DNA of 64,000 nt, from assembly GCA_964501185.1 (NCBI GenBank), contig CAZCRT010000008.1, positions 22,677 to 86,676 of the forward strand, written 5' to 3'. A program made the translations under genes and the position numbers. Source of the DNA: an uncultured Bacteroidia bacterium. GTDB lineage: Bacteria > CAIWAD01 > BS150m-G50. Shown here in pieces: positions 11,845 to 40,002 of the stretch; the stretch's first letter is position 1, and each line of letters starts with the position of its first letter. Under the pieces are notes generated by a model. The model searched no databases. It was not told where the DNA came from and saw only the letters and a program-made list of their open reading frames with translations.

Positions 11845-13497
11845 ATGTTCAGGAAGATCGTCATAACAGTTCTGTTGCTGGCTGTGACAGGGGGTACACT
11901 CCATGCAGCCAGGACCTGGGTCTACTTCGAGCAACTGCCACGAACCGGTGAATTAGCCGGGACAGACCGTGCAGCGGCCAGACTGTTGAAAGCCGGTATT
12001 GACCCGGGCGCTGTGATCAATCAATCTGTAGATCCGGTCTGGCTGGCTGAATTACAGCAGCAGGGTGCGGTCATTTACAATGTCTCACGCTGGTTGGATG
12101 CGATCTCAATTGCTGATGATCCGGAACTGCTCAACAGCCTGGTCAACCGATATCCGGTTCGCGAGGTCCGTCCGGTCCAGTCGTATCACCGTCCCCTGCC
12201 GACACGGTATATGGGGAAGAGTCAATCCTCCACTGATCAGACGACCATCTATGGTGATTCCTGGACACAACTGGCGCAGATGGGTGTGCCAACCCTGCAT
12301 GAACTGGGCTTTACCGGCACAGGTGTTTTTATCGGTATGCTGGATACCGGATGGCAGCTGGGACGTAATGCGTTGAGTCACGCTGATATCGTTGCCACCT
12401 GGGATTTCTACCACGATGATCCAATAGTAGAGAACGAGGAGGCCGATTCGCTTCAACAGGACTACCACGGTACCTCGACACTGGGCTGCATTGCCGCCTG
12501 GGCACCTCAGAACCTGATCGGTGTCGCTTACGATGCCAGTTTCGCGCTGGCAAAGACCGAGCATGTCGATCATGAAATCAACGCGGAAGAAGACGATTTC
12601 GTTGCCGGTCTGGAATGGCTGGACAGCCTGGGTGTTGACATCGTTTCCTCATCGCTGGGATACAGCCGCTTTGATGACGGGCAGGAGAACTATACTATTC
12701 ATGATCTCAATGGTGATATCTGCATAACCACGGTTGCCTGCGATCTGGCTGCAGAGCGTGGGATCTTTGTGGTGACATCTGCCGGTAACAGTGGAAATGA
12801 CTATAACTGGCATGGACTGATTACTTCTCCCGCTGATGGTGACAGTGTCATGGCAGTTGGAGCGGTAGCTGGCGACTCGACTATTGCCAGTTTCAGCTCC
12901 CGTGGCCCGACAGAGGACGGCCGTATTAAACCTGATTTTGTCGCCATGGGGCATGGAACACTGGTGATTGACACCAATCCTAATTCCGGATCGAATTATC
13001 ATTTTGGTTCCGGAACCAGCTATGCGGGCCCATTATTAGCTGGTGCTGCTGCTCTGTTGCTACAGATTGAACCTGATCTACTGCCGATGGAGCTGGCAAC
13101 GCTGATGAAGGAAAATGCCAGTCGGAGTGCTGCACCGGATACAGCCTATGGCTGGGGATTGGTCGACCTCTCCAGGATAACCTGGCAGCATTTTGCTAAT
13201 CCAGTTCAGCTGGCAGTAGATGAAATTCGAGTGTTCCCTAATCCTTTTAACAGTCGTCTTGTTTTCCTGCTCGATATCGATGATGAAACTCTATCGTCTG
13301 TACGGATCGAAATGTATGATCTTCTGGGCCGGATCGTATACAGCAAGGCTTGTAGCGGTATCAGGGAGGAGGGGGAGCTGCTTATCACTGCTCAACCATC
13401 CAGCGAGCTGGCAGCTGGCATATATTTTGCTGTGTTTACAATGATTGAAACCGGTCAAATTATTGGCCAGAAAAAGTGTATCAAACTGGAGTACTGA
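11845..13497 (+). CDS. Subtilisin-like S8 serine peptidase with T9SS C-terminal sorting domain
   Basis: Asp, His (HGTSTLG) and Ser (GTSYAGP) triad motifs, a signal peptide, and a C-terminal ~80 aa with FPNPFNS...KLEY (Por_Secre_tail-like). Confidence 0.85.
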   Translation: MFRKIVITVLLLAVTGGTLHAARTWVYFEQLPRTGELAGTDRAAARLLKAGIDPGAVINQSVDPVWLAELQQQGAVIYNVSRWLDAISIADDPELLNSLVNRYPVREVRPVQSYHRPLPTRYMGKSQSSTDQTTIYGDSWTQLAQMGVPTLHELGFTGTGVFIGMLDTGWQLGRNALSHADIVATWDFYHDDPIVENEEADSLQQDYHGTSTLGCIAAWAPQNLIGVAYDASFALAKTEHVDHEINAEEDDFVAGLEWLDSLGVDIVSSSLGYSRFDDGQENYTIHDLNGDICITTVACDLAAERGIFVVTSAGNSGNDYNWHGLITSPADGDSVMAVGAVAGDSTIASFSSRGPTEDGRIKPDFVAMGHGTLVIDTNPNSGSNYHFGSGTSYAGPLLAGAAALLLQIEPDLLPMELATLMKENASRSAAPDTAYGWGLVDLSRITWQHFANPVQLAVDEIRVFPNPFNSRLVFLLDIDDETLSSVRIEMYDLLGRIVYSKACSGIREEGELLITAQPSSELAAGIYFAVFTMIETGQIIGQKKCIKLEY

Positions 13498-13501
13498 GTC
13501 A

Positions 13502-15814
13502 ATGCGTATAGTTGCTCTGATTGCGGGCTTGTTATTACTGAGTAGTACAGCCGTTGCTTCCCTCGACGATTATTATCATAACTACGATGAGTGCTATGAC
13601 CTGCTCACTTCATTGGCGGATGCCAATCCTGACATCATGCGGGTTGACAGCGTGGGTTACTCCTGCGAACTGGAGATGCCGATCTGGGCTGCGGTGATCA
13701 GCGACAATGTTCAGGAAGACGAGGATGAACCGGCAGTACTGCTGACCGGCACCTGTCATGCTGAGGAGATACTGGGAACGGAAATTGTACTCAGCTTTGC
13801 AGAAGAGCTGATGGCGCATCGCAACCAGATGCCCTGGGTAGCCTGGATTGCCGCCTCGCAGATTATTATCGTGCCTACTTATAATCCTGAGGGAATGGGC
13901 ATCGTGTTGAGCGAAGAGGATGTCACCTATCGCAAGAACCTGCTGGAGATCGGTGGACAGTGCATCATCCAGCCCGGTATCGGTAATGATTCATGTGGTG
14001 TTGATCTCAACCGCAACTTCGATTTTTTCTGGAATCACGGTGATACACTGTGGCACGATCAGGACGCAGAGGCTTTTGATTACTACCGTGGTGCTGCTCC
14101 TTTCTCGGAAGGGGAGAGCAGGGCAATCCGTGATCTGAATCAGGATTTCAATCTGGTTTATTACATCGCTTATCATAGCGCCCGTACGTCGAATAATTTT
14201 CAGAAGGTCATCTACCCCTGGGGCTGGAAGCATCCGGATGATGACCTGATATTCAAACCCTGCCCTGATGTCGATCTGATGATATCGCTGGGTGATGACC
14301 TGGCTGCGCAGATCCCCACATTGGACGGGACCTCCACCTATGCCTCAGTTCTGGGCGGTGGCCGCAAGGGGAGCGCTCATAATTACACCTATGGCAGTTG
14401 GGGTACAATCTCCTTTCTGCTGGAAGTGGGCACTAATGAAGATGGTGGCGCTTTTCAGCCAGAGGACTTTGATATCCTCAACCAGATAATCGACGATAAT
14501 CTGCAGGGTGTGCACTGGATGATGAATCGGCTGATCGGTTATCAGGTTCCTGCACCGATGCTGCAGGGGCATGTTACCGACGCGGCCACCGGGCAGGCGC
14601 TTATCGCGCGGGTGGATGTATTGGAACACACCAGCACGGAAATCAAACCCCGTCTTACACAATTACCCTGGGGTCGCTTTTACCGTGTGCTGGCTGCCGG
14701 ATCATATCAGGTACAGATATCAAAACCGGGTTATGAAACCTATGAACAGACACTGGTAGTCAATCCGCAGGAACCGACAAACTACGAAATTGAGCTGCAG
14801 CCGCTGCCACGCTGGACTGTTTCCGGCACTACATTCCTGACTTCCGATGATGTAACACCTGTGTCATGTGAAGTACAGTTTCTGGATCTGATCCATGACA
14901 CACTGTACAGCTGCCAGAGTGATGGTGAGTATTCCATAGAACTGCCAACCGGTGAGTATTTTGCTTCAACCTCGCATAACGACTATGTACTGGCGGAGCG
15001 TACTCTGCAGCTGTACAGCGACATTGAGAGCAATTTCGGTTTGCCTGATAATGTGACCCTGCTTACACTCCCCACCAACTCGCTTGCCGATTGGAGCAGT
15101 GGTGGTGCTAATTCCGACTGGGCAGTGGCAACAGATGACAGTGCCGGTACGCATCTGGTATCCAACAGCACTATTTACACACACAGTGAAGTGGACGCCA
15201 CACTTACGCTATCCGATCCGGTCGATCTGGGCAGTTATCACCATGCTTCGCTGCATCTGCGGCATTATATCGATCTGGAGGATGAACTCGATTATGCCGA
15301 GATACAGGCCAGTAGTGATGGCCAGCAGTGGTCTACACTGGCACACTACAGTGGGCACTGGGGCGGATATCGTGATACAGAGCATTCACTGGATCAATTT
15401 GCCGGTGGTTTGCTGCACCTTCGTTTCCATCTGGTTACCGATGACTGGGTCAACGATCAGGGTTGGCATATTAACCTGATTACCCTGCGGCAGTCGGATC
15501 AGCTCAATGCTGTTTCTCCCGAAGATGTACAACCAGAGCAGTTTGCACTACTGGGTAATTACCCCAACCCCTTCAACCCGTCGACGACTATCGAGTTTCA
15601 TGTGCCGGCGCACCTGTCGGGTAAACAGCCTCAACTGCAGGTCTACAATTTGCGAGGCGCACAGGTGGCAATTGAAACCGGTGAACCGGTGACCGCTGGA
15701 AAAGCACGGATACAATGGCAGGCGGGCAATGATATCGCGAGTGGCATCTACTTCTACCAGTTGCAGCTTGGAGATCAGGCAACAGAAATCGGAAAGATGT
15801 TGTTTGTGAAATGA
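13502..15814 (+). CDS. M14 zinc carboxypeptidase with T9SS C-terminal sorting domain
   Basis: HxxE zinc motif (CHAEE), signal peptide, and C-terminal NYPNPFNPSTTIEF...MLFVK tail. The start is moved to the in-frame ATG at 13502, after the upstream stop. Confidence 0.8.
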   Translation: MRIVALIAGLLLLSSTAVASLDDYYHNYDECYDLLTSLADANPDIMRVDSVGYSCELEMPIWAAVISDNVQEDEDEPAVLLTGTCHAEEILGTEIVLSFAEELMAHRNQMPWVAWIAASQIIIVPTYNPEGMGIVLSEEDVTYRKNLLEIGGQCIIQPGIGNDSCGVDLNRNFDFFWNHGDTLWHDQDAEAFDYYRGAAPFSEGESRAIRDLNQDFNLVYYIAYHSARTSNNFQKVIYPWGWKHPDDDLIFKPCPDVDLMISLGDDLAAQIPTLDGTSTYASVLGGGRKGSAHNYTYGSWGTISFLLEVGTNEDGGAFQPEDFDILNQIIDDNLQGVHWMMNRLIGYQVPAPMLQGHVTDAATGQALIARVDVLEHTSTEIKPRLTQLPWGRFYRVLAAGSYQVQISKPGYETYEQTLVVNPQEPTNYEIELQPLPRWTVSGTTFLTSDDVTPVSCEVQFLDLIHDTLYSCQSDGEYSIELPTGEYFASTSHNDYVLAERTLQLYSDIESNFGLPDNVTLLTLPTNSLADWSSGGANSDWAVATDDSAGTHLVSNSTIYTHSEVDATLTLSDPVDLGSYHHASLHLRHYIDLEDELDYAEIQASSDGQQWSTLAHYSGHWGGYRDTEHSLDQFAGGLLHLRFHLVTDDWVNDQGWHINLITLRQSDQLNAVSPEDVQPEQFALLGNYPNPFNPSTTIEFHVPAHLSGKQPQLQVYNLRGAQVAIETGEPVTAGKARIQWQAGNDIASGIYFYQLQLGDQATEIGKMLFVK

Positions 15815-15902
15815 CAATATGAGATAGCTTGTAGGAGCATGACCAACGCTATGAATGGAATTGGCCAGGGGTAACCTGAGAACCGGAAAGAATCGAGGAT
15901 AA

Positions 15903-18900
15903 ATGATGAAAACAACTATCACAATTCTGTTGCTGACCGCTCTGCAACTTACAGCAGTGGCGGCAACCGATACCTGTATCACCAGCATTACTCAGGAACA
16001 GGATGCGGTTGTGATACAATATCAACTTGCCGGTTTCAACCTGGAAGATCAGGATGGGGAATCACTGATCGAAATTGACGGGATGGAACTCTCCAGCTAT
16101 GCCGGGCAACCTCAGGTGCCTTTCACCACCTTCTGGCTGGAAATCCCGGTTGACGCGGAAGTCAGCTTTGAACTACAGGAGCAGGATACCCGATTCTACC
16201 CCGATCTGGTTCTGGCGGAATATCAGGATGATGAAGTCAAGGTTGATCCGGCAGCGGGGCGAACCAACCTGGACAGTTTTGTCGCGATTGGTAATGACGG
16301 TTGGATGCGCGATCTGCGACTGGTGCCGTTGACGCTACAGCCTGTGCGCATAGAGCAGGAGGGTGTGCGAGTGCTGCAGTCGGCAGCGATCAGGATCAGT
16401 TTCAGCAAAACAACGGAGTACAGTGATATCAGCTATTCCAGCGAGATGGATGAACTCTATCGTTCCTTTGTTGTTAACCACGGGCAGTTTTCCAATCACA
16501 GGGATGAGACACAGTTCCCGCGTCTGCTGGTGGTCTCATCACCTTTCTATACGGATTACATAGGTGATCTGCTCCAGTGGAAACGGCGCGCAGGTTTTAA
16601 TGTGGACTATGTGACTTTTGACCAGATGCCGGGCGGTGGCAATACGATTACTGCTGATAACCTGGACAGCTGGTTGATCGATTACTACGCCCAGCATCAG
16701 CCTGAATATATTGTGCTGGTAGGTGATCAGGATGGTACCTACGCCTGTCCCACCTTTCTCATTCCGGAGTCGGAAGGGGAGGACTATAATGTAACCGATC
16801 TGCAGTTCAGTCTGAAAGTGGGCGACGATTACCTGCCGGATCTGCTGCTGGGCAGGCTCTCTGTACACGATGCTCCGGTACAGCTGATGACCATTATCGA
16901 CAAAGTAGTCCAGTATGAATCTGCACCATTTGCCGGTGTGAACGAAGAGCAGGAAGACTGGCTGGAAAGCGGCCTGGTGGTTGGTGGTAATTATGCAGAG
17001 GGTAATACAACTCCGGTAACACCGGTACTGACCAGTCGCTGGGTGCGTGAAAGGTTAATAGACAACGGTTTCTCGCAGGTGGACACAGTCTATTTTCCAC
17101 CTCATATTTCCGGTGAACCGATGATCTCCAATACGATCAATAACGGTGTCGGTATTGTTAACTATCGCGGATGGGCAGACGCTGAGCACTGGCAACGCCC
17201 CTCCTATTCAATCACCAATATGAACGACAACCTGAATAACCACTATATGACCCCGATCATGTTGTCAATCGTATGTAATACCGGTGATTTCGGTCACGCT
17301 CAACATGAACCCTGTTTCGCGGAGGCTTTTCTGCGGCTCGGTACCCCCGGTGCACCCCGGGGTGGGATAGCGGTGTTCGCCCCCAGCGATCTCCATACGC
17401 GATCCATCTATAACAATGCGATCAACGCCGGCTTTTACCGTGGCCTCTTCAACGAAGGTATCAGCACCATGGGTGGTAATGTGGTACGGGCGAAGATCGA
17501 TCTGTTCAACGGTTTTCCCAACGAACAGGAGCTGAACGGTTATGTCTTTTTCTATTTCAATGTCTACAATCTGCTGGGTGACCCCAGCCTGCGGATACGT
17601 ACTGCAGTGCCGGAGCCGCTGCTGGTAACTGCCCCGGACACACTTGCGGTCGGGAGCAGCAGTTACTCGGTGGCAGTCACCGATGAGCAGAGTTCACCTA
17701 TGGCAGATATGCTGGTCACGCTGGTTGCGGGTGATGAAAGTGAACAGCTGCTGGCGCGTGGGCGCACCGATGCCGCCGGTAACCTGACGCTGTATTACGA
17801 GCGATTAGTGGATGCCGGTACAGCCAGGTTGACTGTACTCGGTAACAACAGCTATCCCCATCTGGTCGACATTCCAATTGTAGTGCGTCCGCAATTCGCT
17901 ACACTCGTAGCCAGCACATGGCTGGAAGATGGTACTTCCGGATCAGACGGTAACGGTGACGCGGATGTTAATCCAGGTGAAACTGTTGCCTGGTTCCCAA
18001 CCCTGCTGAACAGTGGAAGCGAGACTATTCCTTCGATTGATCTGATTGCATCAGTTGATGATGGATTTATAGAGTTGCAAAGTACTGAACTGACTTTCGG
18101 GGAATTGCTGTCAGGTGCACAGACAACGTCTGCAACACCGTTGTTGCTGAATGTATCACATTCTGTTCCACATGGCTGGCCACTGCAACTGGATCTGCAT
18201 ATCAGTGGTGAGGAATTCACACAGAATTCCCGGGATGAACTGACAGCTGTTGCCAGCCGACCCTACTTTGTTTCTGATACATTGCCCGGTGATGCCAATC
18301 AGGTGATTGATTCGGATGAACTGGTTCAGCTGGAATTGACACTCGCCAACGATGGTGACCTGCCTACCGTTGATCTCAGCGGGACATTATCATCGCTGAT
18401 ACCGGAGCTTACAGTTGAAACAACGATACCACAAGCCATAGGTATAATACCGGTTGATGGCGAAGCGACTGTGGCTTTTGAACTGCATGGGGGCGTTGAC
18501 ATTCTGCCAGGACTACTGCTGCAATTGCAGCTGGAGTTGACCGGGGGTAGTGATTTCCAGCAGCTACTCGACATTGACATAATCAACGGCCAGCGGGAAA
18601 CAGGTGACCCCACCGGACCGGATGGTTACGGTTACTGGGCTTATGAGAGTCGCGATTACTACTACCTGAACCGGCCTGATTATGAATGGGAGGAAATCGA
18701 CACCCGTCTACTTCCGGAAAGTAACGGAACACGTCTCGAGCTGGAAGATGATCAGAGCACTACTATTGCGCTGCCTTCTGACAACTTTAACTTCCGATTC
18801 TACGGTGTTGATTTCGACTCGATCACCGTCTGCTCCAATGGTTGGATTTCAATGGGGAGAACCTGGATGTCAGACTTTACAAACTGGATGATTCCACCGG

Positions 18901-20450
18901 GCCTGGGGCCCTCTAACATGATCATGCCATTCTGGGACGATCTCAAGCCACAATACACACCTGCGGAAGATTCAGTTCAGGTTCCTGTTTATTACAAGGA
19001 TATGGGTGATGGCCGTTTTATTGTGGAATGGAGTCAGACCTATAACCGTTATCTGTGGGATTCAGAGCCCATGGAGGAAACCTTCCAGGTTATCCTGTAT
19101 GATCTGTTACAGTATCCCACAGCAACGGGTGACAGCCAGATAAAGTTTCAGTATCGCGTGATACACGATGAGGATGCCCGTGCTAATTATGCAACTGTCG
19201 GCATCACTGATCACGATCACTACCACGGGTTGGAGGTTACTTTTGCTCAGCGTTATGGCCCTGATGCTGCCATGCTGGCCGATGGCACCGCTATTCTCAT
19301 TACTACCGATCCACCACAGCGTGTCACCAATCCCCAGATATTCCTGGAAGGGGAACTGGAGGAGTGGTTCCATTCGCTTACACCTGAACTGCAGTGGGAT
19401 CCGGGGGTGCTGACCGGCAATCCGGATGTAACTTATACATTGCAGCTGGCACTGGACAATACATTCCCGGAGTTTGTGGCGAGCTATACAGATATCGATA
19501 CTTCTGCTTTCACGGTGCCTGATCCACTGGAGGAAGTAACACAATACTTCTGGCGGGTAATAGCTCATCTGGAGGACGAGGAGGATATCCTCTGTACACC
19601 TGATTTCCACAGCTTTCAGATCGATGCTACCGAACCTGTCGCCGAACTGGGGTTGATTGACAACCCGGTGTTTCCGCACTACCTCGATCTCGGTCTCATC
19701 AGTAGCGAGGAGTTAGAGGATGTACCCTGGGTGGTTGTAACCGATGCGGATACCGCACTGGTGGATTCCTCTCAGGCAGCACAGATGCCGCAGACCGAAA
19801 CAGGATTCCATTATACGCTCAACCTGGAACTGCTGGGACAATATCAACTCGCTGTACAGATGGTGGATGCACATGGATTGCCCGGTAGTACTGAGCGTGA
19901 TCTGGCGCTGGGTGGTGCCGGCTACACCTCCATTGAAATAGGTGATGATATCCGACTGGACTGGCTGTCGGGGACAGTAGTAACCGCTCTCGAAGGTGAG
20001 CAGGGTGTTGAACTGAGTGGTAATGGCAGCTATCTTCTTGAGTTTTCCGGTGAGGGGATTATCTGCCGGTTTGAAAATGGTAACTGGCGGGCGCTGGCTC
20101 CGGAAGGAGTGCAGCAGATTGTGATACATGAGGGAGGGCATTATGCTCTACGCTCTGCAGGTGATTTACTGCCTGATGCGGTAACCCTTTACGATAACTA
20201 CCCCAACCCCTTTAACGGTTCCACCCGTCTGGAGTTCACCCTGCCGGAAAGGGCAGCAATCCAGTTATCGGTGTACAACCTGCTGGGCAGGAGGGTTGAA
20301 GTATTGCAGGAGAGTACACTTAACGCCGGATTCCACCAGTATGACTGGCAACCCGGCAACTATGCTTCCGGTATGTACTGGGCGGTGTTGCGGGTTACGG
20401 GAGAAACCGAGAGTGTGACACGTATTCAGAAAATGCTCTATCTGAAGTGA
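15903..20450 (+). CDS. Large secreted multidomain protein, peptidase C25 (gingipain/PorU)-like, with T9SS C-terminal sorting domain
   Basis: 1515 aa with a signal peptide. C25-like N-terminal region (YIVLVGDQDG ... IVCNTGDFGH), FN3-like segments, and a C-terminal DNYPNPFNGSTRLEF...MLYLK tail. Confidence 0.5.
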   Translation: MMKTTITILLLTALQLTAVAATDTCITSITQEQDAVVIQYQLAGFNLEDQDGESLIEIDGMELSSYAGQPQVPFTTFWLEIPVDAEVSFELQEQDTRFYPDLVLAEYQDDEVKVDPAAGRTNLDSFVAIGNDGWMRDLRLVPLTLQPVRIEQEGVRVLQSAAIRISFSKTTEYSDISYSSEMDELYRSFVVNHGQFSNHRDETQFPRLLVVSSPFYTDYIGDLLQWKRRAGFNVDYVTFDQMPGGGNTITADNLDSWLIDYYAQHQPEYIVLVGDQDGTYACPTFLIPESEGEDYNVTDLQFSLKVGDDYLPDLLLGRLSVHDAPVQLMTIIDKVVQYESAPFAGVNEEQEDWLESGLVVGGNYAEGNTTPVTPVLTSRWVRERLIDNGFSQVDTVYFPPHISGEPMISNTINNGVGIVNYRGWADAEHWQRPSYSITNMNDNLNNHYMTPIMLSIVCNTGDFGHAQHEPCFAEAFLRLGTPGAPRGGIAVFAPSDLHTRSIYNNAINAGFYRGLFNEGISTMGGNVVRAKIDLFNGFPNEQELNGYVFFYFNVYNLLGDPSLRIRTAVPEPLLVTAPDTLAVGSSSYSVAVTDEQSSPMADMLVTLVAGDESEQLLARGRTDAAGNLTLYYERLVDAGTARLTVLGNNSYPHLVDIPIVVRPQFATLVASTWLEDGTSGSDGNGDADVNPGETVAWFPTLLNSGSETIPSIDLIASVDDGFIELQSTELTFGELLSGAQTTSATPLLLNVSHSVPHGWPLQLDLHISGEEFTQNSRDELTAVASRPYFVSDTLPGDANQVIDSDELVQLELTLANDGDLPTVDLSGTLSSLIPELTVETTIPQAIGIIPVDGEATVAFELHGGVDILPGLLLQLQLELTGGSDFQQLLDIDIINGQRETGDPTGPDGYGYWAYESRDYYYLNRPDYEWEEIDTRLLPESNGTRLELEDDQSTTIALPSDNFNFRFYGVDFDSITVCSNGWISMGRTWMSDFTNWMIPPGLGPSNMIMPFWDDLKPQYTPAEDSVQVPVYYKDMGDGRFIVEWSQTYNRYLWDSEPMEETFQVILYDLLQYPTATGDSQIKFQYRVIHDEDARANYATVGITDHDHYHGLEVTFAQRYGPDAAMLADGTAILITTDPPQRVTNPQIFLEGELEEWFHSLTPELQWDPGVLTGNPDVTYTLQLALDNTFPEFVASYTDIDTSAFTVPDPLEEVTQYFWRVIAHLEDEEDILCTPDFHSFQIDATEPVAELGLIDNPVFPHYLDLGLISSEELEDVPWVVVTDADTALVDSSQAAQMPQTETGFHYTLNLELLGQYQLAVQMVDAHGLPGSTERDLALGGAGYTSIEIGDDIRLDWLSGTVVTALEGEQGVELSGNGSYLLEFSGEGIICRFENGNWRALAPEGVQQIVIHEGGHYALRSAGDLLPDAVTLYDNYPNPFNGSTRLEFTLPERAAIQLSVYNLLGRRVEVLQESTLNAGFHQYDWQPGNYASGMYWAVLRVTGETESVTRIQKMLYLK

Positions 20451-21050: not shown

Positions 21051-22016
21051 GTGCCGATAACTACCGGTGCTTCCCGGCTGGATAAGAAAACAGTGTTGGC
21101 CAGAGCGCGGGAGCTGGGCGCCGATCTGGTAGGTGTAACAGATACAGCTCCCCTTGAAGAGCAGGACGCACGCTTCAGTAGCTGGCTGGCTGCCGGTAAA
21201 CATGCCGGTATGCAGTGGCTGGAGCAACGTGTTCCACAACGACTGCTGTATGAATCACCTCTTCCCGACGCCCGATCTATAATTGTTATCGCGCTCAGTT
21301 ATCACACGGGACAACCTTCCGGGCAGAACTCCGAGTCACCTGTCTACAATGTATCACGTTATGCCCACGGCCGGGACTACCACAAAGTAATACGGCGTAT
21401 ACTCAGGGGGCTCTCCCGATTTATCAGTGAACAGACCGGTTGCCAGAGTCGCGGCTTTGTTGATTCGGGACCGGTAATGGAAAAAGCCCTCGCACAGAGA
21501 GCCGGTCTTGGCTGGATCGGGAAAAACACGCTCCTCCTGAATCGCACTTATGGCTCCTGGCTGGTGCTGGGCGAGCTGTTTACCGAACTGGAACTGACGC
21601 CTGATCATCCCCATTCCGATTATTGCGGTGAATGTACGATATGCCTGGAGGCCTGTCCTACAGAAGCGCTGACTGACTTCGGACTGGATTGTAAGAGCTG
21701 TATTTCCTATGCTACTATCGAGCGTCCTGACAAGGAATCCTGCCAGCTGGAGCCAGCAGGGAACATCTTTGGCTGTGATATCTGCCAGGATGCCTGTCCC
21801 TGGAATGAGCAGGCAGCAACAACGGCCCTGGTGGATTTCGAAATGCGCGATGTAGTCAAACAGTTAAGACTCGGTAATCTGCCCCCTGATGCTGAAGCGT
21901 GGGAGCTGGCAAATCGCGGTTCATCTCTGCGGCGCATAAGTTATCAGAGGCTTCTGGAAAATGCTTCAGGTGTAGATCGGGAAAGGGTTGAACGATCAGG
22001 AGGAACGAGCAGGTGA
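21051..22016 (+). CDS. queG: Epoxyqueuosine reductase
   Basis: Two CxxCxxCxxxCP ferredoxin motifs plus the QueG-type N-terminal domain. GTG start is uncertain. Confidence 0.8.
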   Translation: MPITTGASRLDKKTVLARARELGADLVGVTDTAPLEEQDARFSSWLAAGKHAGMQWLEQRVPQRLLYESPLPDARSIIVIALSYHTGQPSGQNSESPVYNVSRYAHGRDYHKVIRRILRGLSRFISEQTGCQSRGFVDSGPVMEKALAQRAGLGWIGKNTLLLNRTYGSWLVLGELFTELELTPDHPHSDYCGECTICLEACPTEALTDFGLDCKSCISYATIERPDKESCQLEPAGNIFGCDICQDACPWNEQAATTALVDFEMRDVVKQLRLGNLPPDAEAWELANRGSSLRRISYQRLLENASGVDRERVERSGGTSR

Positions 22017-22906
22017 AAATGCTCCTGAAATTTCTGGATTATCTCTTTTTCTGCCGTCCAATACTGATTCTGGCTGCATGGACTGTTATTCTGCTGGGTG
22101 CATCACGCCAGGGGTTTCAGCAACAGGCCTGGTTGCTGGCAGGCTATGGTTGCCTGCTCGGTACGGCTTTCATTATCAATCAATTGCGTGACCGCGAGAG
22201 TGACCGGATCAACAACAAATTGCCCCACCTCGCTCACGGAGTTGTCAGCGAACATGAGGCTCGCACCTTGACCTGGCTGTTGCTGATCGGAGGCGTCCTG
22301 TTTATTCTGCGTGCCGGTTGGGAACACATCCTGAGCATGACGCTCCTCCTCGCCATTACAACCTGGGCCTATAATCTGCCACCACTTCGACTGAAGAAAC
22401 GTTTTCTCTCAGGACCGGTCACATTGGGCCTGTCTGCCTGTCTGGTATTTCTGCAGAGTACAGGATTCAGCCGGGTTGCGTGGGAGGAGCTGGTTGCAGT
22501 ATTCCTGTCAGTAACTTCAATATGCCTTCTGACAGAATTACCTGATCGGGAAGGAGACCGGCAAACGGGACGTCGTACGGTAGCCGTTGTTTCCGGTGAG
22601 ACAGTTACGCTGCGAATAACAACGCTGCTGATGGCTGCAGCGACTCTCTCTGCCATTGCAGGAGAGTTTTATCTACTGGCATTTCCGGCCTTTGCGTCCA
22701 CATTAATACAATTACGTCTACTGGTCAAACGTCGACGTGATACAAAAGCGATCAATTTTGCCATCAGGCTATCGCTTTTACTGTTGGGAGTGGCAGTAGC
22801 TGTTGCTTTTCTCTGGTTCGGCTTGTTAATTCTAGCCTGTTATCTGGTAGCGCGTAAGTACTACTGGTACCGCTTCCGCAGGCGCTATCCTTCATTCACC
22901 GAATAA
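22013..22906 (+). CDS. UbiA-family prenyltransferase (membrane)
   Basis: Asp-rich motifs NQLRDRESD and DREGD; 8-9 TM helices. Confidence 0.75.
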   Translation: MKMLLKFLDYLFFCRPILILAAWTVILLGASRQGFQQQAWLLAGYGCLLGTAFIINQLRDRESDRINNKLPHLAHGVVSEHEARTLTWLLLIGGVLFILRAGWEHILSMTLLLAITTWAYNLPPLRLKKRFLSGPVTLGLSACLVFLQSTGFSRVAWEELVAVFLSVTSICLLTELPDREGDRQTGRRTVAVVSGETVTLRITTLLMAAATLSAIAGEFYLLAFPAFASTLIQLRLLVKRRRDTKAINFAIRLSLLLLGVAVAVAFLWFGLLILACYLVARKYYWYRFRRRYPSFTE

Positions 22907-22946
22907 CCGGTCAGGGAAGCTCGCACACACGCAAACTGGAAATTAT

Positions 22947-23123
22947 ATGGTCAGGATCGATCCCACCATCTGCGACTACTGTGGTACCTGTGTAGGTGCC
23001 TGTCCGGAGAACTGTATCGAGATGGGTACACATTTTATCGCCATCGATTACAGCATCTGCACCGAGTGTGGTATCTGTGTCCATGTCTGTCCGCTGGAGG
23101 CGGTCAGCGAGGAGGAGGAATGA
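22947..23123 (+). CDS. 2[4Fe-4S] ferredoxin (58 aa), absent from the ORF track
   Basis: Manual translation gives MVRIDPTICDYCGTCVGACPENCIEMGTHFIAIDYSICTECGICVHVCPLEAVSEEEE. Two CxxCxxCxxxCP motifs. Stop TGA overlaps the next gene's ATG (ATGA). Confidence 0.7.
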   Translation: MVRIDPTICDYCGTCVGACPENCIEMGTHFIAIDYSICTECGICVHVCPLEAVSEEEE

Positions 23124-24313
23124 CCGGACAGCAGTGGGATGTGATCATTGGCGGTGCAGGTCCCGGTGGTAGTGCGGCAGCGGAGTACTGCGCCAGGGCA
23201 GGCCTGCGGACTCTGTTGCTGGAGAAGGATCGTGATATTGGAATTCCTGTCCGTTGTGGTGAGGGCGTGCCACACGATGGCCTGGTAGAATTCTGCGAGC
23301 CTGACCCCCGCTGGATTGCAACCGAAATCGACAGTGTGCGAATCTACTCTCCTGATGCAACCAGTTTTAACCTGTCGATGCCCGGAGCCGGATATATTCT
23401 CGACCGACGTACTTTTGATTATTACCTGGCCACACGCGCAGCCAGTGAAGGTGCCCGGGTGGAAACCGGTGTTACCATCAGCGGTGTTATCAGCGAGCAG
23501 GGTTGTGTTACCGGAGTGGAACTCGAGCAGGGTCGTAAACGCTATAAGTTAAACTGTCGCCTGCTGATTGCTGCTGATGGTGTAGAGTCCCGGATTGCCC
23601 GTTGGGCGGGATTACGTACCTTTACAACTCTCAAGGATCTGGACAGTTGTCAGCAGGTAACATTGCAGGGAAAGAATATTGATTCCGGCCGGGTGGATTT
23701 CTACTTCGGCAATAAAACCGCTCCTGGTGGTTACGCCTGGGTATTTCCTAAAGGTGATAACATGGCCAACGTCGGGCTGGGTATCTCCGGGAAGGCTTCA
23801 ATTCATCGTAAGGCTCATCTCTATCTGGAGGATTTCCTGCAGGCGCATTTCCCGGATGCCTCTATTCTGAGCACAACCTGCGGTGGCATTCCGCTGGATG
23901 GCTCATTGAAAGCACCCTACGGTAATGGCATAATGATTGTGGGTGATGCCGCCCATCAGCCAAACCCTGTCACCGGAGCCGGGATTATCAACGCCATGAT
24001 TGCCGGGAAGCTGGCTGCTGAAACTGCTGCAACCGCTCTGGCAGAGGATGATGTCAGCGCTGGCGTACTGTCGGCTTATGGCAAAGCCTGGCAGAAACGG
24101 GTCGGTTGGGAGCACAAACTGTACTATCGGGTACGGGGGTTGATGGAAGATCTTAACGATGAAACATATAACAGCGTAGCGGCCACTCTTCATGACCTTC
24201 CGGAGTCAAAACGGAATCTGCGCAAAGTGTTGATGACTGTGTTCCGCAACCAGCCAGGATTCGTGCTGGATCTGGTGATGGGATTGTTTGGTAGTAGATC
24301 TGGTAAGGAGTAG
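23120..24313 (+). CDS. Geranylgeranyl reductase family FAD-dependent oxidoreductase
   Basis: GxGxxG motif (DVIIGGAGPGGSAAA) and GGR-family length and topology. Start at MTGQQWD is coupled to the ferredoxin stop. Confidence 0.85.
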   Translation: MTGQQWDVIIGGAGPGGSAAAEYCARAGLRTLLLEKDRDIGIPVRCGEGVPHDGLVEFCEPDPRWIATEIDSVRIYSPDATSFNLSMPGAGYILDRRTFDYYLATRAASEGARVETGVTISGVISEQGCVTGVELEQGRKRYKLNCRLLIAADGVESRIARWAGLRTFTTLKDLDSCQQVTLQGKNIDSGRVDFYFGNKTAPGGYAWVFPKGDNMANVGLGISGKASIHRKAHLYLEDFLQAHFPDASILSTTCGGIPLDGSLKAPYGNGIMIVGDAAHQPNPVTGAGIINAMIAGKLAAETAATALAEDDVSAGVLSAYGKAWQKRVGWEHKLYYRVRGLMEDLNDETYNSVAATLHDLPESKRNLRKVLMTVFRNQPGFVLDLVMGLFGSRSGKE

Positions 24314-26356: not shown

Positions 26357-27151
26357 ATGGAGTACCCCATGCAACTTCTGGACCTGACACCGGAAACTGA
26401 AGCAACCTTCCTCCATTGTCTTCACGATGAAAAGCCGGATGATCCGCGGGTAATCGACTTACGTCGCAGGTGGGTCGAAGAGAAGCGTGATCGGGGCTTT
26501 CGTGGTAAGGTACTGCGTCTGGAAAGTGGTGAAATTGCTGCCCTGGGACAATACCTGCCGATCGAAGAGAGTTTTATCGATGGAGATAATCTGACGGTAA
26601 TCCTCTGCCTCTGGGTGCATGGCTATGATCACCACATTGGCAACCGGCAGGAAAATGGCTATGGCCGGTTCATGCTGGAACAGATAGAAACTGAGATTCG
26701 TGACAGTGGAGCAGAGGGGATCGTTGCCTGGGGGATGGATTTTCCTTACTGGAATCCGGTCTCTTTCTACGAGCATATGGGATATGAACGGGTCGACAGG
26801 GATGGGCCAGCTGTACTGGTCTGGAAACCGTTTGTTCCGGAAGCACAACCTCCCCGCTGGTTTCATCTTCAGAAGCGTCCGCAAACCGATCCACAGAGGG
26901 TGACGGTTCATTCTTTTTACAATGGCTGGTGTACGGGCAGTTGTGGCCAGTGTGTTACGGTTCGCGACGCCGTAGCTGGAATCGATGAGAAAATCCGTTT
27001 CCGGGAGGTGGACAGCAATCAGCGGGAACAGCTTGTTGAGTGGGGTATTTCCACCGGTACTTATCTGGATGGGGAGCCGTTCCGCCCCGACGAACCCCCC
27101 TTCAGCAGTGAAGATCTGCGACAGGAAATCCTGTCACGCATTGAAGAGTAA
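26357..27151 (+). CDS. Hypothetical GNAT-like domain fused to a glutaredoxin/NrdH-like CxxC domain
   Basis: The N-terminal acyl-CoA N-acyltransferase-like segment (QENGYGRFMLEQIE) is a weak match. The C-terminal ~80 aa has a CGQC motif in a Grx-like beta-alpha-beta context. Confidence 0.4.
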   Translation: MEYPMQLLDLTPETEATFLHCLHDEKPDDPRVIDLRRRWVEEKRDRGFRGKVLRLESGEIAALGQYLPIEESFIDGDNLTVILCLWVHGYDHHIGNRQENGYGRFMLEQIETEIRDSGAEGIVAWGMDFPYWNPVSFYEHMGYERVDRDGPAVLVWKPFVPEAQPPRWFHLQKRPQTDPQRVTVHSFYNGWCTGSCGQCVTVRDAVAGIDEKIRFREVDSNQREQLVEWGISTGTYLDGEPFRPDEPPFSSEDLRQEILSRIEE

Positions 27152-31839: not shown

Positions 31840-34263
31840 ATGCGAAGCCTGTTGACCCTGAGCGGAGCAGCCCTGTTGTTCTCTCTGCATTCCCTTTATG
31901 CGACCGTTCTCATTCACGAGGTTCATTACGATGTCACCGGCAGCGATAACGGTGAGTTTGTCGAGCTGTTTAACACCGGCGCTTCGGATGTTGACATCTC
32001 CGGCTGGTATCTGGGTGATGAGGAAACTGAAGGTGGCGGGGAATCAATGAGCAGTTTTCCCGGTGGCACCATTATCTGCGCCGGAGACTTTCTGCTGATC
32101 GCACGCGATGAGGTAGAGTTTGTGGCACATTTCGGCCTGACACCGGATGTGATCATGCCCTTCGCTCTCAGCAACAGCGGTGACGAGGTATTGCTCTCGC
32201 GCAGTTTCTATGCCGAATACGAAGATGTAGTAGCATACGAAGGGGGTAGTTTCCCCGGTGTAACCCCACATCCGGGAGTCGGCACCGGGTTTTCACTGGA
32301 GCGGGTAGATCTGACTGATACTGATGATTGTTCATTAGATTTCACCTCCATCAATCCTCCGACACCTACAGCTGCAGACTGTACACCCGATCCTCCTATC
32401 GAAGGTACTATTTCCGCATTCTTCAACGGCTCTGTCAATCCGGGATACGCTGTATACGATCCGGCAAACGGGTATGATGATCTAGCCAATCGTCTGATTG
32501 CACTGATAGACCAGACCACAGTTTCACTCGATATCTGTATATACAATCTCTCTTTAGGCGATATTGCCAATGCGATCATCGCAGCGCATAACCGCGGTGT
32601 CAGCGTGCGGGTCATCATTGAAGATGACAATCATAATTCCTATACACAGTCTATGGAGAATGCCGGCATTACCATTATTGATGATTCCTTCGGCAGTAAC
32701 TCCGGGTCCAATCTGATGCACAACAAGTTCGTGCTGTTTGATTACCGGCTGGACGAAGGGGACGATGACGATCAGGTATGGACCGGATCCTACAATTTCA
32801 CCTACCAGTCGGACACTTATGACGACAACAATGTGCTGGTCATTCAATCCAGCCAATTGTGCTCCGTCTATCTGGACGAATTCAACGAGATGTGGGGCGC
32901 CACAGGTGAAACACCATCTGCTGACAACAGCCGTTTCGGTGGTAACAAGCTGGATAACACACTACATTCAGTCACCATTGACAGCAGTTTGGTCGAACTC
33001 TACTTCTCCCCCTCCGATGGCGCTACCGCTGAACTGACGCAGCTGATTGCCACCGCTGACCATGATATATACTTCTGCATCCTCTCTTTCACCCGTACCG
33101 ATGTCGAAGACGCCCTGCATAACCGCTTTAACGCCGGTAAGCCGGTACGTGGTGTGTTTGACTACGCGCAGGGAAACGATCCCTACTCAGTTTTCAGCGA
33201 TATGGCCGGCACCGGTGACGATCCCTGGAATCCTGCAGCGGATGTTCACCTGGATGGCAACGGTTCCGGAATGATGCATCACAAATACATGCTGATCGAC
33301 CCACAGCATCCTGACTCAGACCCGATTGTGATTACCGGTTCCATGAACTGGTCTACATCCGGTGGATTTTACAACGATGAAAACATGATCGTTATCCATG
33401 ATCCTCATATTGCCGACCAGTATTTCCAGGAATTTGCCGCCCGGTTTATTGATGCCGGCGGGGAGCTGCCCGATGGCGGAGATGAGGTCAGCATCCATGA
33501 CATCCAGTACACAGAAGATCCTTCCGGCAGTTCTCCATACGAAGGCGCACAGGTTTCCACCAGCGGGCTGGTGTCTGCTGTCTTCAGCAGTGGTTTCTTC
33601 CTGAGTGAAAACAACAACGCGCCCTGGAGCGGGATTTATGTGTATAACAATACAATCAACCCGGTGGTTGGTGATTCACTTACGCTGAATGCAACCGTAG
33701 CGGAGTACTACGAACTGACCGAGCTGACAGGTGTCAGCGATTTCATACTGCATGAAAGCGGCCTGATACCGGTTCCTCTGACTGTCAGTTGCCTGGAAGC
33801 TGCCGGTGAACAATATGAAGGGTGTTTCCTGCAGTTGAACGATCTGACCGTCATCGATCCTGATCTCGGATATGGTGAGTGGAGTGTCAGTGATGGTACT
33901 GCTACGCTGGTGGTAGATGATATGGGCAGTTACACTTATGTGCCACAGGCGGGTGATCAGATTGCGCAGTTAACCGGCCCGTTGTACTTCGGCTATGGCC
34001 TGTTCAAACTGGAACCGCGTGATGATGATGATATTGTACTCTCACTGCCGGCAGTAACTGACCTGGCCATCACTACTGATGGCAGCACTGTTCAGCTCTC
34101 CTGGAGTGCAATCCCGGGTGCAACTCACTATCGTATTTTCGCTGCAGTTGATCCCTGGTTTACTCCGGGGCCGGAAAACCTGGTAACGGAAACAGCTCTG
34201 CTCATTTATGATGAAGCGGTGTCAGGATCAGCTCTGTTCTACCGGGTGGTAGCACTGAATTGA
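31840..34263 (+). CDS. Secreted phospholipase D/nuclease-superfamily protein (two HKD motifs) with lamin-tail domains
   Basis: Signal peptide, N-terminal LTD (EVHYD...EFVELFN), HNKFVLFD...GSYNF and HHKYMLID...GSMNW HKD motifs, a second LTD-like region, and an FN3-like C-terminus. Confidence 0.7.
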   Translation: MRSLLTLSGAALLFSLHSLYATVLIHEVHYDVTGSDNGEFVELFNTGASDVDISGWYLGDEETEGGGESMSSFPGGTIICAGDFLLIARDEVEFVAHFGLTPDVIMPFALSNSGDEVLLSRSFYAEYEDVVAYEGGSFPGVTPHPGVGTGFSLERVDLTDTDDCSLDFTSINPPTPTAADCTPDPPIEGTISAFFNGSVNPGYAVYDPANGYDDLANRLIALIDQTTVSLDICIYNLSLGDIANAIIAAHNRGVSVRVIIEDDNHNSYTQSMENAGITIIDDSFGSNSGSNLMHNKFVLFDYRLDEGDDDDQVWTGSYNFTYQSDTYDDNNVLVIQSSQLCSVYLDEFNEMWGATGETPSADNSRFGGNKLDNTLHSVTIDSSLVELYFSPSDGATAELTQLIATADHDIYFCILSFTRTDVEDALHNRFNAGKPVRGVFDYAQGNDPYSVFSDMAGTGDDPWNPAADVHLDGNGSGMMHHKYMLIDPQHPDSDPIVITGSMNWSTSGGFYNDENMIVIHDPHIADQYFQEFAARFIDAGGELPDGGDEVSIHDIQYTEDPSGSSPYEGAQVSTSGLVSAVFSSGFFLSENNNAPWSGIYVYNNTINPVVGDSLTLNATVAEYYELTELTGVSDFILHESGLIPVPLTVSCLEAAGEQYEGCFLQLNDLTVIDPDLGYGEWSVSDGTATLVVDDMGSYTYVPQAGDQIAQLTGPLYFGYGLFKLEPRDDDDIVLSLPAVTDLAITTDGSTVQLSWSAIPGATHYRIFAAVDPWFTPGPENLVTETALLIYDEAVSGSALFYRVVALN

Positions 34264-37776: not shown

Positions 37777-39024
37777 TCAGTTCTGATCTTCCGGTGGCTT
37801 ATCCTGTTCACCGGTCTCATTCCTGTCAGGACGCAGGTTGAGCATCTTTAAGTCTCCCAGGTAGTTGACCGATTCCAGTGATTCAAGTTGTTCGAATCTT
37901 TGTATCACGTCAGCTATCCGGTCACTGTTTTCCATCAGGGTCTGCAATCGCTCTCTGTCCTTCTGGCGCATCGGGGAATCTTTATCATTCAGCATGAGAT
38001 AGAGCTGACTCTTGATGGTGGTCAGAGGATTATTGATCTCATGACTGACCGCTATGGCAGCTTCACTCAGCAGTTGAAATTTCTCTGCGAAGCGCGCTTT
38101 TTCCTGCAACTGCCGTGTCTCGGTCATATCTCGCACCAGCAGCATTGATCTGTTCTGCATCTCTACCTGCAGCGGAGTGACAGTGATATCAGTTTCCAGC
38201 TTCTGTTGCTGGTCATTAATCAGGGTTGCTTCCAGTCGCCCTGTTTTGCGTGAAGCGAGTAGTTGCTGCAGCTGTTTCTGCTGCTTTCTCTCAATCAGCA
38301 GATCGATAAAATCGCGATGCAGAAACTTGTCTTTACTCCAACCCATTCTCACGATTGCAGGATTGGCAAATTGAATTGATCCCTCTTCGTCCAGCAGGAT
38401 TACCGCCTCCTGAGCTTGAGTGATCAGAGTATCCAGAAAGGCGCTGGTTCGTTCAATTTTCTGGTAGAGCAGGGAATTCTGCAAGGCCACAGCTGCCTGG
38501 TTGACCGTGTAGAAAATTGTATCCAGGCTATGCTGTGTGATTGTATCACGAACAGCAGAAGTCGTGCAGATGAAAAATCCGATCCCCTGACCACCGACAG
38601 CCAGTGGTACAACCAGGAAAGAAAGCTGTTGACCGGAATCATCGCTCTCTTCCTGTATCACATCAATATCCGGAACCAGTATTGCGCGCTGTTCACCCTG
38701 TATCCAATCGATGATACCGTCACTGATCATACCGGGAACAGCACTTGTGAGCGCTTTTTCCGGGCTTCCAAAGCAGACCGGCTTATCGCTTTCGGTCATC
38801 AGATACACTGCACATGAATCAAAATCTACCAGTCGGGCGACAACTCCGAAGAGTGCTTCTACCACATAATCCGGTTCCACGGCGGAGCGTATTGTCTCCG
38901 ATAGCTGCTGGATCTCCTTGAACTCACCCAGTGACTCACGAAGTGCATCCCGGGTATGAGCAGCTGTAATCAGTTCCTGACGCAGCTGTTCAAGATCGGA
39001 CCTGTCACTCTTCCGCTTGTCCAT
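37777..39024 (-). CDS. GAF/PAS sensor with HisKA domain but no HATPase domain
   Basis: GAF and PAS-like segments, H-box SHEINNPLTTI, terminates shortly after. Start is moved to MDKRK to avoid overlap with the upstream gene. Confidence 0.6.
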   Translation of the reverse strand: MDKRKSDRSDLEQLRQELITAAHTRDALRESLGEFKEIQQLSETIRSAVEPDYVVEALFGVVARLVDFDSCAVYLMTESDKPVCFGSPEKALTSAVPGMISDGIIDWIQGEQRAILVPDIDVIQEESDDSGQQLSFLVVPLAVGGQGIGFFICTTSAVRDTITQHSLDTIFYTVNQAAVALQNSLLYQKIERTSAFLDTLITQAQEAVILLDEEGSIQFANPAIVRMGWSKDKFLHRDFIDLLIERKQQKQLQQLLASRKTGRLEATLINDQQQKLETDITVTPLQVEMQNRSMLLVRDMTETRQLQEKARFAEKFQLLSEAAIAVSHEINNPLTTIKSQLYLMLNDKDSPMRQKDRERLQTLMENSDRIADVIQRFEQLESLESVNYLGDLKMLNLRPDRNETGEQDKPPEDQN

Positions 39025-39037
39025 GGATCTGCCTGTT

Positions 39038-40000
39038 CTAGCTGTTGCCGGTACGGTTCTCGCTGCCCCAGGCGTAATAATCAGACTCCGGGACATCTCT
39101 ACCCTGAATTATACTGCGGAACGCATTAGCACGTTCGAACTCCTCCCTGAAGAGATCAGTATAATGATCAATATCGACTTCACCCTGTGGGGTGCGATGC
39201 AGTTGCAGGAGGTTTGCCACCGGTTCTGCCACTCCCCAGATTTTCCCCTCCTGCGCATAGTGCGGATGCAGGCGCCGTGTAAGAAAATCAGCGAAATAGG
39301 TTATTGCAGTAAGCTGAGACAGTTCCTCTTCCAGCAGTGGCTGATGATGATAACGAATGGCATCGACTATCTGCTCCGGCAGATTCCAGCGCCGGGTCAG
39401 CAATCCTCCGATTTCTGCGTGGCACAATCCCAGAATTTCCTTCTCCGCTTCCCAGAGCAGGTAGTCCTTCTTCTCCTGTAATCGCTGGATCTCAGTGAAC
39501 TCCTGTGGCAGGTAGCGTACAATGACCAGCCGTCCGATATCGTGCAGCAATCCGGTCACAAATGCTTCACCGACTACACGATAGTTACCTTCCCTGCTTA
39601 TCATCCTGGCGGCAATTGCAGTACCGATAGAGTGTTCCCAGAATCCGGTCATATCAAATCCGGTGACTTCATGGCTGATATTGAATCGATCCACCAGCGA
39701 AGAGCTGACACCGAGATCTTTGACCGTGTTGAAGCCGAGTACAACTATTGCCAGGTTGATAGTGCCGATACGGCGTGGAAAGCCATAGAAAGCAGAGTTA
39801 GCCAGCTTCAGCATCCGGGCAGTCAGGCCGGGATCGGTTGCGATCAGACGGGAGAGTGTCGCCGCGTTTGTCTTCGGATTATCCACCAGTTCGACAATTT
39901 TGGAGACAACCATCGGTAGTGACGGTAGATCGAGAATACCATCGGCAATTGCTCTCACTCTGTCAGCTTTGGTTAACGGGGCAACTTGGGAAGGGGGCAT
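39038..40000 (-). CDS. HDOD-domain signalling protein
   Basis: LPSLPMVVSKIVELV...ATDPGLTARMLKLANSAFYG and a downstream HD-like HDIG...HH region. Confidence 0.8.
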   Translation of the reverse strand: MPPSQVAPLTKADRVRAIADGILDLPSLPMVVSKIVELVDNPKTNAATLSRLIATDPGLTARMLKLANSAFYGFPRRIGTINLAIVVLGFNTVKDLGVSSSLVDRFNISHEVTGFDMTGFWEHSIGTAIAARMISREGNYRVVGEAFVTGLLHDIGRLVIVRYLPQEFTEIQRLQEKKDYLLWEAEKEILGLCHAEIGGLLTRRWNLPEQIVDAIRYHHQPLLEEELSQLTAITYFADFLTRRLHPHYAQEGKIWGVAEPVANLLQLHRTPQGEVDIDHYTDLFREEFERANAFRSIIQGRDVPESDYYAWGSENRTGNS

Positions 40001-40002
40001 AT

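Follow-up and report, generated by a model that had tools for sequence, protein, structure and literature searches.

Do some bacteria carry a dedicated set of genes to build and saturate an isoprenoid lipid of archaeal type? The question is raised by three consecutive genes in a stretch of 64,000 nucleotides from an uncultured Bacteroidia bacterium (assembly GCA_964501185.1, contig CAZCRT010000008.1, positions 22,677 to 86,676), hereafter called the window, to which all coordinates refer. All on the plus strand, they code for a UbiA-superfamily intramembrane prenyltransferase of 297 aa (22013..22906), a 2x[4Fe-4S] ferredoxin of 58 aa (22947..23123), and a flavoprotein of 397 aa of the geranylgeranyl reductase (GGR) family (23120..24313), which resembles archaeal digeranylgeranylglycerophospholipid (DGGGPL) reductases. 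An initial reading of the nucleotide sequence, hereafter the original prediction, had proposed a possible archaeal-type module for saturated isoprenoid lipids. We found that the trio is a real and evolutionarily conserved unit, whose adjacency goes beyond chance: it is found again at 50-53 of 66 loci from species-representative genomes, across several phyla and with differing flanks. As to its product, the best-supported reading, to which we give even odds, is that the unit builds and saturates an isoprenoid glycerolipid, through a prenyl transfer like that of digeranylgeranylglyceryl phosphate synthase (DGGGPS) and a ferredoxin-fed GGR; taken as a whole, the original prediction is partly supported.

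Structure of the locus

We annotated the window together with 10 kb beyond each of its ends (about 84 kb). Each of the three proteins passes its Pfam or NCBIfam family model, and the genes lie where they had been predicted. The stop codon of the upstream neighbour queG (TIGR00276, 279.9 bits) overlaps the start of UbiA in a GTGA read in the sequence (22013..22016, plus strand), and cysS starts 2 nt past the GGR stop. Inside the trio, 40 nt lie between UbiA and ferredoxin, and the only overlap is that of the ferredoxin stop codon with the start of GGR, an ATGA also read in the sequence (23120..23123, plus strand) that points to translational coupling. The description of the trio as three consecutive and translationally coupled genes is therefore right for their order, and for coupling it holds at the ferredoxin-GGR junction only. 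Such tight spacing is not peculiar to the trio: the whole run from queG to cysS is compact and reaches into the housekeeping neighbours, and a scan for promoter and terminator consensus sequences gave no signal above shuffled background that would set the three genes apart.

The GGR start is most plausibly the ATG at 23120, which is preceded by a GAGGAGGAGG ribosome-binding site, gives a protein of 397 aa, and was also chosen by gene callers on other contigs. We rejected a GTG at 23066, which would open a reading frame of 415 aa, as an artefact of listing open reading frames, the segment 23066-23119 falling inside the ferredoxin gene.

Conservation of the three-gene unit

The order queG-UbiA-ferredoxin-GGR-cysS is identical in the Candidatus Delongbacteria metagenome-assembled genome (MAG) GCA_016784425.1. 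Beyond this, GGR homologues of about 45% identity are abundant in MAGs of Marinimicrobia, Zixibacteria, Calditrichaeota, KSB1 and Bacteroidetes. A Calditrichaeota contig and one other contig carry a UbiA of 325 aa followed by a ferredoxin of 58-61 aa, GGR, and a CDP-alcohol phosphatidyltransferase; the Calditrichaeota UbiA in the equivalent position is 33% identical to that of the window over its full length (E 8e-33). One Marinimicrobia contig has the ferredoxin-GGR pair without UbiA.

We scanned GTDB, with one genome per species, using a UbiA family alignment made of the window and Calditrichaeota groups. This gave 80 loci, which belong to KSB1, Calditrichota, LCP-89, Zixibacteria and Marinimicrobia or to MAGs that are unclassified or carry a wrong label; 66 of the loci have more than 1.6 kb of downstream sequence and were used for counting downstream genes. 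A small dicluster ferredoxin (motif CDFCGTCVxVCPxDAIEL) directly follows UbiA in 53 of the 66, GGR is present in 50, and the overlap between the ferredoxin and GGR genes is general across related loci. An apparent archaeal case, a contig assigned to a 'Candidatus Poseidoniia archaeon' (GCA_030754855.1, JASLZM010000047.1) with the order SNF-UbiA-ferredoxin-GGR-RNase T, was set aside, as it shares its context with the Marinimicrobia contig and is probably mis-binned bacterial DNA.

It could be argued that the three genes have independent functions, and that their adjacency is an inherited order within compact housekeeping operons. Its outer junctions, with queG and cysS, are indeed an overlap and a gap of 2 nt, and in KSB1 and Calditrichota unrelated genes (purF, ftsY, rimO, purN) surround it in a long conserved run. 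However, it stays intact while its flanks change completely, these being queG and cysS in Delongbacteria, SNF and RNase T-helicase genes in Marinimicrobia, and another set in KSB1 and Calditrichota. The survival of the trio through such changes argues for function, the ferredoxin-GGR overlap is not confined to one lineage, and a prenyltransferase, a ferredoxin and a GGR share an obvious chemistry. We consider independent functions very unlikely.

The reductase and its ferredoxin

The GGR scores 85.6 bits on Pfam GGR_cat and 212.6 bits on TIGR02032 (geranylgeranyl reductase family), above the cutoff of 158.8. It aligns over residues 5-380 with the GGR of Thermoplasma acidophilum (PDB 3OZ2; 220.7 bits, E 2.6e-64), an alignment in which the motifs GxGxxG (GGPGGS), VRCGEG with the catalytic Cys, PGGYAWVFPKG, and VGDAA are all kept, and it also matches Sulfolobus GGR (E about 1e-30). 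None of the more specific NCBIfam models reaches its cutoff, and they rank in the order DGGGPL reductase, ChlP, MenJ. Among the DGGGPL reductase equivalogs (NF041160, NF041080, NF041385), the Thermoplasmatales model gives 236.9 bits (cutoff 780), the generic one 167.1 bits (cutoff 580), and the third 86.4 bits (cutoff 700); BchP/ChlP TIGR02023 gives 136.8 bits (cutoff 343.3), ChlP TIGR02028 76.1 bits (cutoff 505.3), and MenJ 67.7 bits (cutoff 700).

Since no equivalog cutoff is reached while the archaeal models rank first, the protein represents, by its sequence, a bacterial branch within the lipid reductases of archaeal type, which is consistent with the relationship to euryarchaeal GGRs reported for bacteria of the Fibrobacteres-Chlorobi-Bacteroidetes (FCB) group (Villanueva et al., PMC7852524). 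The original assignment to GGR is thereby upheld, and the grouping with ChlP or with menaquinone-saturation enzymes that had been named as its possible undoing was not observed; we rejected both identities on scores far below the cutoffs.

The ferredoxin gene, which had been absent from the list of open reading frames and was recognized in the original prediction, is real. Its product has two CxxCxxCxxxCP motifs, CDYCGTCVGACP and CTECGICVHVCP, scores 48.5 bits on Pfam Fer4 (cutoff 21.1), and also matches Fer4_10; gene callers also report it on further contigs from this organism. It adjoins GGR and is conserved with it, including at the Marinimicrobia locus that has no UbiA. In Methanosarcina acetivorans (MA1484/MA1485) the ferredoxin gene adjoins that of GGR and is required for GGR activity, and a 4Fe-4S gene likewise adjoins GGR in T. 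acidophilum (PMC10821996). The archaeal arrangement of a GGR beside its own ferredoxin, to which the prediction had appealed, is thus the same as the one found here, and by analogy the small ferredoxin is the presumed electron donor to GGR.

A discrete subfamily of UbiA prenyltransferases

The prenyltransferase belongs to the UbiA superfamily, with 94.2 bits on Pfam PF01040 (cutoff 34.2). Of its two Asp-rich motifs, the first reads NQLRDRESD, which conforms to NQxxDxxxD (N56, Q57, D60, D64), and the second D178xxGD182. The family assignment of the original prediction was therefore correct, but the NDxxD-type motif that it described is in fact NQxxDxxxD with an invariant Gln. In the family alignment N56, Q57, D60, D64, Y120, K128, D178, G181 and D182 are all invariant, and a distinctive C-terminal tail, YYxxRFxxxYPS, is present. 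The AlphaFold (AF2) model (pLDDT 90.9) predicts an N-terminal amphipathic helix and about nine transmembrane helices, and it matches PDB entries of the UbiA fold with TM-scores of 0.6-0.69.

An exhaustive search with the family profile recovered, at E<=1e-30, at least 395 representative clusters, the top 150 being full-length matches of 240-400 bits. We could not find any curated NCBIfam model whose cutoff is reached, either by the window UbiA or within a set of 19 family members, and databases list these proteins under generic or erroneous names ('4-hydroxybenzoate polyprenyltransferase', 'tocopherol phytyltransferase') or, in some cases, under none. By these sequence comparisons they make up a large and discrete subfamily that no curated model covers.

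Concerning the relationship of this subfamily to characterized members, its profile best matches, among PDB entries, AfUbiA of Archaeoglobus fulgidus (4TQ3, 61.9 bits), followed by chlorophyll synthase (56 bits), the DGGGPS of Methanocaldococcus jannaschii (MjDGGGPS, 6M31; 42.6 bits), DPPR synthase (34.9 bits) and UBIAD1 (17.9 bits). A Foldseek search with the model ranks MjDGGGPS first (TM-score 0.64-0.69), ahead of AfUbiA and ApUbiA, and puts UBIAD1 at the end (0.47); this ranking separates UbiA clades weakly, all non-quinone members scoring 0.57-0.69, and is not decisive evidence. AfUbiA and the subfamily both have no Asp at the second position of the first motif (NA in AfUbiA, NQ here) and share an N-terminal YLxLLRP-type motif. 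They are only about 24% identical, and the acceptor of AfUbiA is unknown, so that no function can be transferred from one to the other.

One well-known bacterial pairing of a UbiA-family enzyme with a GGR-family enzyme is that of MenA with MenJ, and the trio might accordingly prenylate menaquinone or another quinone and saturate its side chain. The window UbiA does match MenA models, weakly, at no more than 30 bits against cutoffs of 102-522, and the GGR falls far short of MenJ. In a small neighbour-joining tree (282 columns, 200 bootstraps, five references that include neither Cloacimonetes nor crenarchaeal DGGGPS), the UbiA and MenA of E. coli, whose reference sequences we checked against NCBIfam, fall outside the family. 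UBIAD1 is the weakest match by both structure and sequence, and the neighbourhood contains neither men nor ubi genes. Model scores, profile ranking and tree thus agree in not clustering the protein with MenA or UbiA quinone enzymes, the clustering that had been named in advance as contrary to the prediction. A quinone prenyltransferase reading is excluded on these sequence grounds, and quinone prenylation as the role of the trio is effectively refuted by the family scores.

A closer alternative is offered by chlorophyll synthase (ChlG/BchG) and homogentisate phytyltransferase, which are likewise UbiA-family enzymes paired with a GGR-family reductase, the partnership of ChlG with ChlP being well known. 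Here GGR would convert geranylgeranyl diphosphate (GGPP) to phytyl diphosphate, or reduce the chain after its transfer, and UbiA would load it onto a non-glycerol acceptor, be it an aromatic, a carboxyl or another head group; the product would be a cofactor, antioxidant or pigment bearing a phytyl chain, and not a membrane diether. Among NCBIfam models, the window UbiA does in fact score best on BchG/ChlG (63.8 bits, cutoff 212) and homogentisate phytyltransferase (59.7 bits, cutoff 226; 46.6 bits for the Calditrichaeota orthologue), next to 59.9 bits (cutoff 269) on PRK12884, an unspecific model on which validated E. coli UbiA scores 81. Chlorophyll a synthase is also its best match in a single-sequence search of PDB, and one relative is automatically annotated as a tocopherol phytyltransferase. 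However, these UbiA scores lie 3-7 fold under the cutoffs, and the accompanying GGR is not of the ChlP type, its nearest relatives being the archaeal lipid reductases. The trio hosts, unlike those of the pigment systems, are non-phototrophs. As the original prediction had stated, quinone, chlorophyll and tocopherol genes are absent from the surroundings, here the window and the 10 kb flanking each of its ends. Nor did the window and 80 related loci yield any gene for chlorophyll, homogentisate, quinone or aromatic precursors, the conserved neighbours being pgsA-like and cdsA genes rather than pigment genes. We consider this second alternative unlikely, if clearly the more credible of the two.

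Neighbouring phospholipid genes

In 46 loci of the GTDB set, the trio is followed by a gene for a pgsA-like CDP-alcohol phosphatidyltransferase of roughly 195 aa, and at loci devoid of the ferredoxin and GGR the pgsA-like gene comes directly after UbiA. These proteins score 91-109 bits on the pgsA model TIGR00560, always just below its cutoff of 109.1; they could represent a diverged and possibly specialised PgsA subgroup.

A more distant UbiA branch, of about 310 aa and sharing the C-terminal YYxxRF motif, was recovered from 80 metagenome loci. UbiA comes directly after cdsA, at the end of a rpsB-tsf-pyrH-frr-uppS-cdsA string, in 8 of 55 of these loci, and cdsA lies within 1 kb of it in 13 of 55; in other lineages of the branch it is preceded by a ZIP zinc transporter gene or by rpmB. 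Most members have no adjacent ferredoxin-GGR pair, a GGR being nearby in only 4 of 55.

A possible isoprenoid glycerolipid pathway

If the trio builds and saturates an isoprenoid glycerolipid, its enzymes would act as follows. The Asp-rich motifs of UbiA would hold Mg2+ and ionise a polyprenyl diphosphate, probably the C20 GGPP, and the prenyl chain would then be moved onto a lipid acceptor in the membrane. This acceptor would most likely be based on glycerol phosphate, for example geranylgeranylglyceryl phosphate made by a geranylgeranylglyceryl phosphate synthase (GGGPS) encoded elsewhere, in a DGGGPS-like reaction. The FAD-dependent GGR would hydrogenate the double bonds of the chains with electrons from the small ferredoxin, and head groups would be added by CdsA and a PgsA-like transferase, CDP-dependent enzymes of the usual bacterial kind.

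The same three protein types, DGGGPS (6M31), GGR and ferredoxin, carry out the late steps of archaeal ether-lipid synthesis. Both MjDGGGPS and the window UbiA have the N/D/D residues of the first motif (N62/D66/D70 in MjDGGGPS), a Y...K pair and a DxxxD motif, all of which are superfamily-wide, and the layout of an amphipathic helix and about nine transmembrane helices is common to MjDGGGPS and to the predicted model. Unlike archaeal DGGGPS, the window UbiA has NQ in place of ND, an additional C-terminal YYxxRFxxxYPS tail, and a bacterial host, and trio-type loci neighbour bacterial pgsA-like or cdsA genes.

That FCB bacteria may make archaeal-like lipids is not a new idea. The original prediction was right to invoke it but overstated the novelty: FCB genomes are already known to carry homologues of GGGPS, DGGGPS and euryarchaeal-type GGR (PMC7852524, PMC6431249, PMC12590816), and the GGGPS and DGGGPS pair of Cloacimonetes leads to unsaturated archaetidylglycerol when expressed in E. 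coli (Villanueva 2021, PMC7852524). Homologues of both enzymes were reported in phyla such as Calditrichaeota, KSB1 and Zixibacteria, and separately in Marinimicrobia (PMC7852524), a set that overlaps strongly with the phyla in which we found the trio and that did not cover Delongbacteria. In Cloacimonetes the published linkage is between GGGPS and DGGGPS, whereas here it is between UbiA, ferredoxin and GGR, GGGPS being never adjacent at the loci searched. We found no description of the conserved operon, of the UbiA subfamily or of its presence in Delongbacteria in these three papers (PMC7852524, PMC6431249, PMC12590816), nor anything on lipids in the literature on Delongbacteria. What is new here is thus the presence in Delongbacteria, the conserved UbiA-ferredoxin-GGR operon with its frequent pgsA-like gene, and the definition of the UbiA subfamily.

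Several observations weigh against an isoprenoid glycerolipid as the product. No gene for GGGPS, glycerol-1-phosphate dehydrogenase (G1PDH), a GGPP or polyprenyl synthase, or CarS is present in the annotated 84 kb. With seeds of GGGPS groups I and II (B. subtilis PcrB, identical to PDB 3VZX; M. thermautotrophicus GGGPS, identical to 4MM1; and 6NKE), we could not find any match at E<=10 in the window, the Delongbacteria loci and the 80 GTDB loci (1.3 Mb in all), nor at E<=1e-3 in the 80 metagenome loci of the distant UbiA branch (0.72 Mb). None of 160 related loci has a GGGPS within 8 kb, and the seeds gave nothing in the window, its extensions or 177 loci; searches of this extent exclude co-localisation rather than presence elsewhere in the genomes. 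In agreement with them, co-localisation of GGGPS and DGGGPS has been published as restricted to Cloacimonetes (PMC7852524). Most FCB phyla also have no G1PDH (Coleman 2019, PMC6431249).

Other such observations concern UbiA itself. On the DGGGPS models PRK12882, PRK12883 and PRK12872 it scores only 36.0, 25.3 and 20.5 bits (cutoffs 296, 353 and 278), and its scores on the ChlG/BchG and homogentisate phytyltransferase models are somewhat higher. The neighbour-joining tree, again with its five references, recovers the family as monophyletic and sister to AfUbiA (91.5%) rather than to MjDGGGPS, which pairs with ChlG (83%) before being joined by the family and AfUbiA (62.5%). As no Cloacimonetes record is present among the 80 GTDB loci, the subfamily may differ from the clade of bacterial DGGGPS that has been verified by experiment. 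Part of the adjacency to pgsA and cdsA falls within long conserved housekeeping strings (purF...ftsY-rimO; rpsB-tsf-pyrH-frr-uppS-cdsA) and may reflect inherited order rather than function, and we found no lipid data for trio-bearing organisms. The identification of UbiA as a DGGGP synthase, suggested in the original prediction, is consequently not established; a DGGGPS-like role is compatible with the sequence evidence and unproven, and homology alone cannot name the acceptor.

These same observations might point to a pathway that dispenses with GGGPS and glycerol-1-phosphate, in which the UbiA subfamily, not being orthologous to DGGGPS, would prenylate a bacterial lyso-lipid based on glycerol-3-phosphate (G3P), or glycerol phosphate, and together with the ferredoxin-fed GGR and CdsA or PgsA-like enzymes yield hybrid acyl/phytanyl or phytanyl-ether phospholipids. 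The distinctness of the subfamily from curated DGGGPS, the linkage to pgsA-like and cdsA genes in separate UbiA branches, and the lack of GGGPS near any searched locus would fit such a pathway. To our knowledge, there is no precedent in the UbiA superfamily for a bacterial G3P-lipid acceptor, and the local absence of GGGPS is uninformative on the rest of the genome. The scarcity of G1PDH in FCB phyla (PMC6431249), and the finding that, of marine Cloacimonadota with homologues of DGGGPS and GGR, only 26% have GGGPS (PMC12590816), speak for it; the co-occurrence of GGGPS and DGGGPS homologues already published for Calditrichaeota, KSB1 and Zixibacteria genomes speaks against it. We consider it improbable, but if it is true, a native pathway for hybrid lipids would extend over Delongbacteria, KSB1, Calditrichota, Zixibacteria and Marinimicrobia.

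Host and genomic surroundings

The nearest named relative of the window is the Candidatus Delongbacteria MAG, whose UbiA and GGR are 68% and 80% identical to those described here, and identical proteins are found on contigs of 86-168 kb from several JGI and ENA metagenome samples. The host is a marine relative of Candidatus Delongbacteria bearing a type IX secretion system (T9SS), in line with the original argument that T9SS cargo would fit the FCB group. Besides queG and cysS, the annotated 84 kb contain the housekeeping genes rho, prfA, prmC, rnr, pyrF, marC and rpmB, as well as genes for signalling proteins.

Upstream of the trio, three consecutive genes on the plus strand (11845-20450) code for secreted peptidases with T9SS C-terminal sorting domains: an S8 subtilase (550 aa), an M14 carboxypeptidase (about 770-790 aa) and a gingipain-like C25 peptidase (1515 aa), in the same order as in the Delongbacteria MAG. 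On the minus strand, at about 39000-46600, lie the flagellar export and regulation genes flhB, flhA, flhF, a gene for a 234-aa protein, and fliA; the combination of flagellar genes and T9SS in one genome is noteworthy for an FCB-type organism.

Two further proteins coded on the plus strand may deserve attention. One, of 807 aa (31840-34263), has both a lamin-tail domain (LTD) and a phospholipase D/cardiolipin synthase-like PLDc_2 domain, is conserved in the Delongbacteria MAG, and may be lipid-related. The other, of 264 aa (26357-27151), belongs to no Pfam or NCBIfam family, with a sub-threshold GNAT match only, and is kept downstream of cysS and marC in related contigs.

Implications for bacterial membranes

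Our results extend the published idea of archaeal-like lipids in FCB bacteria without proving it, as an addition at the operon level rather than a new kind of system. They also draw attention to a large UbiA subfamily for which no curated model exists, and which annotation pipelines mislabel as 4-hydroxybenzoate polyprenyltransferase or tocopherol phytyltransferase. The UbiA-ferredoxin-GGR cassette, often extended by a pgsA-like gene, represents a compact three- or four-gene construct for expression tests, and includes the physiological reductant that reconstructions of archaeal lipids in E. coli have needed. If the trio does build and saturate an isoprenoid glycerolipid, Delongbacteria and many lineages of KSB1, Calditrichota, Zixibacteria and Marinimicrobia would join the bacteria suspected of having mixed archaeal/bacterial membranes, with consequences for the 'lipid divide' and for the question of which organisms leave archaeol-type biomarkers in anoxic marine waters.

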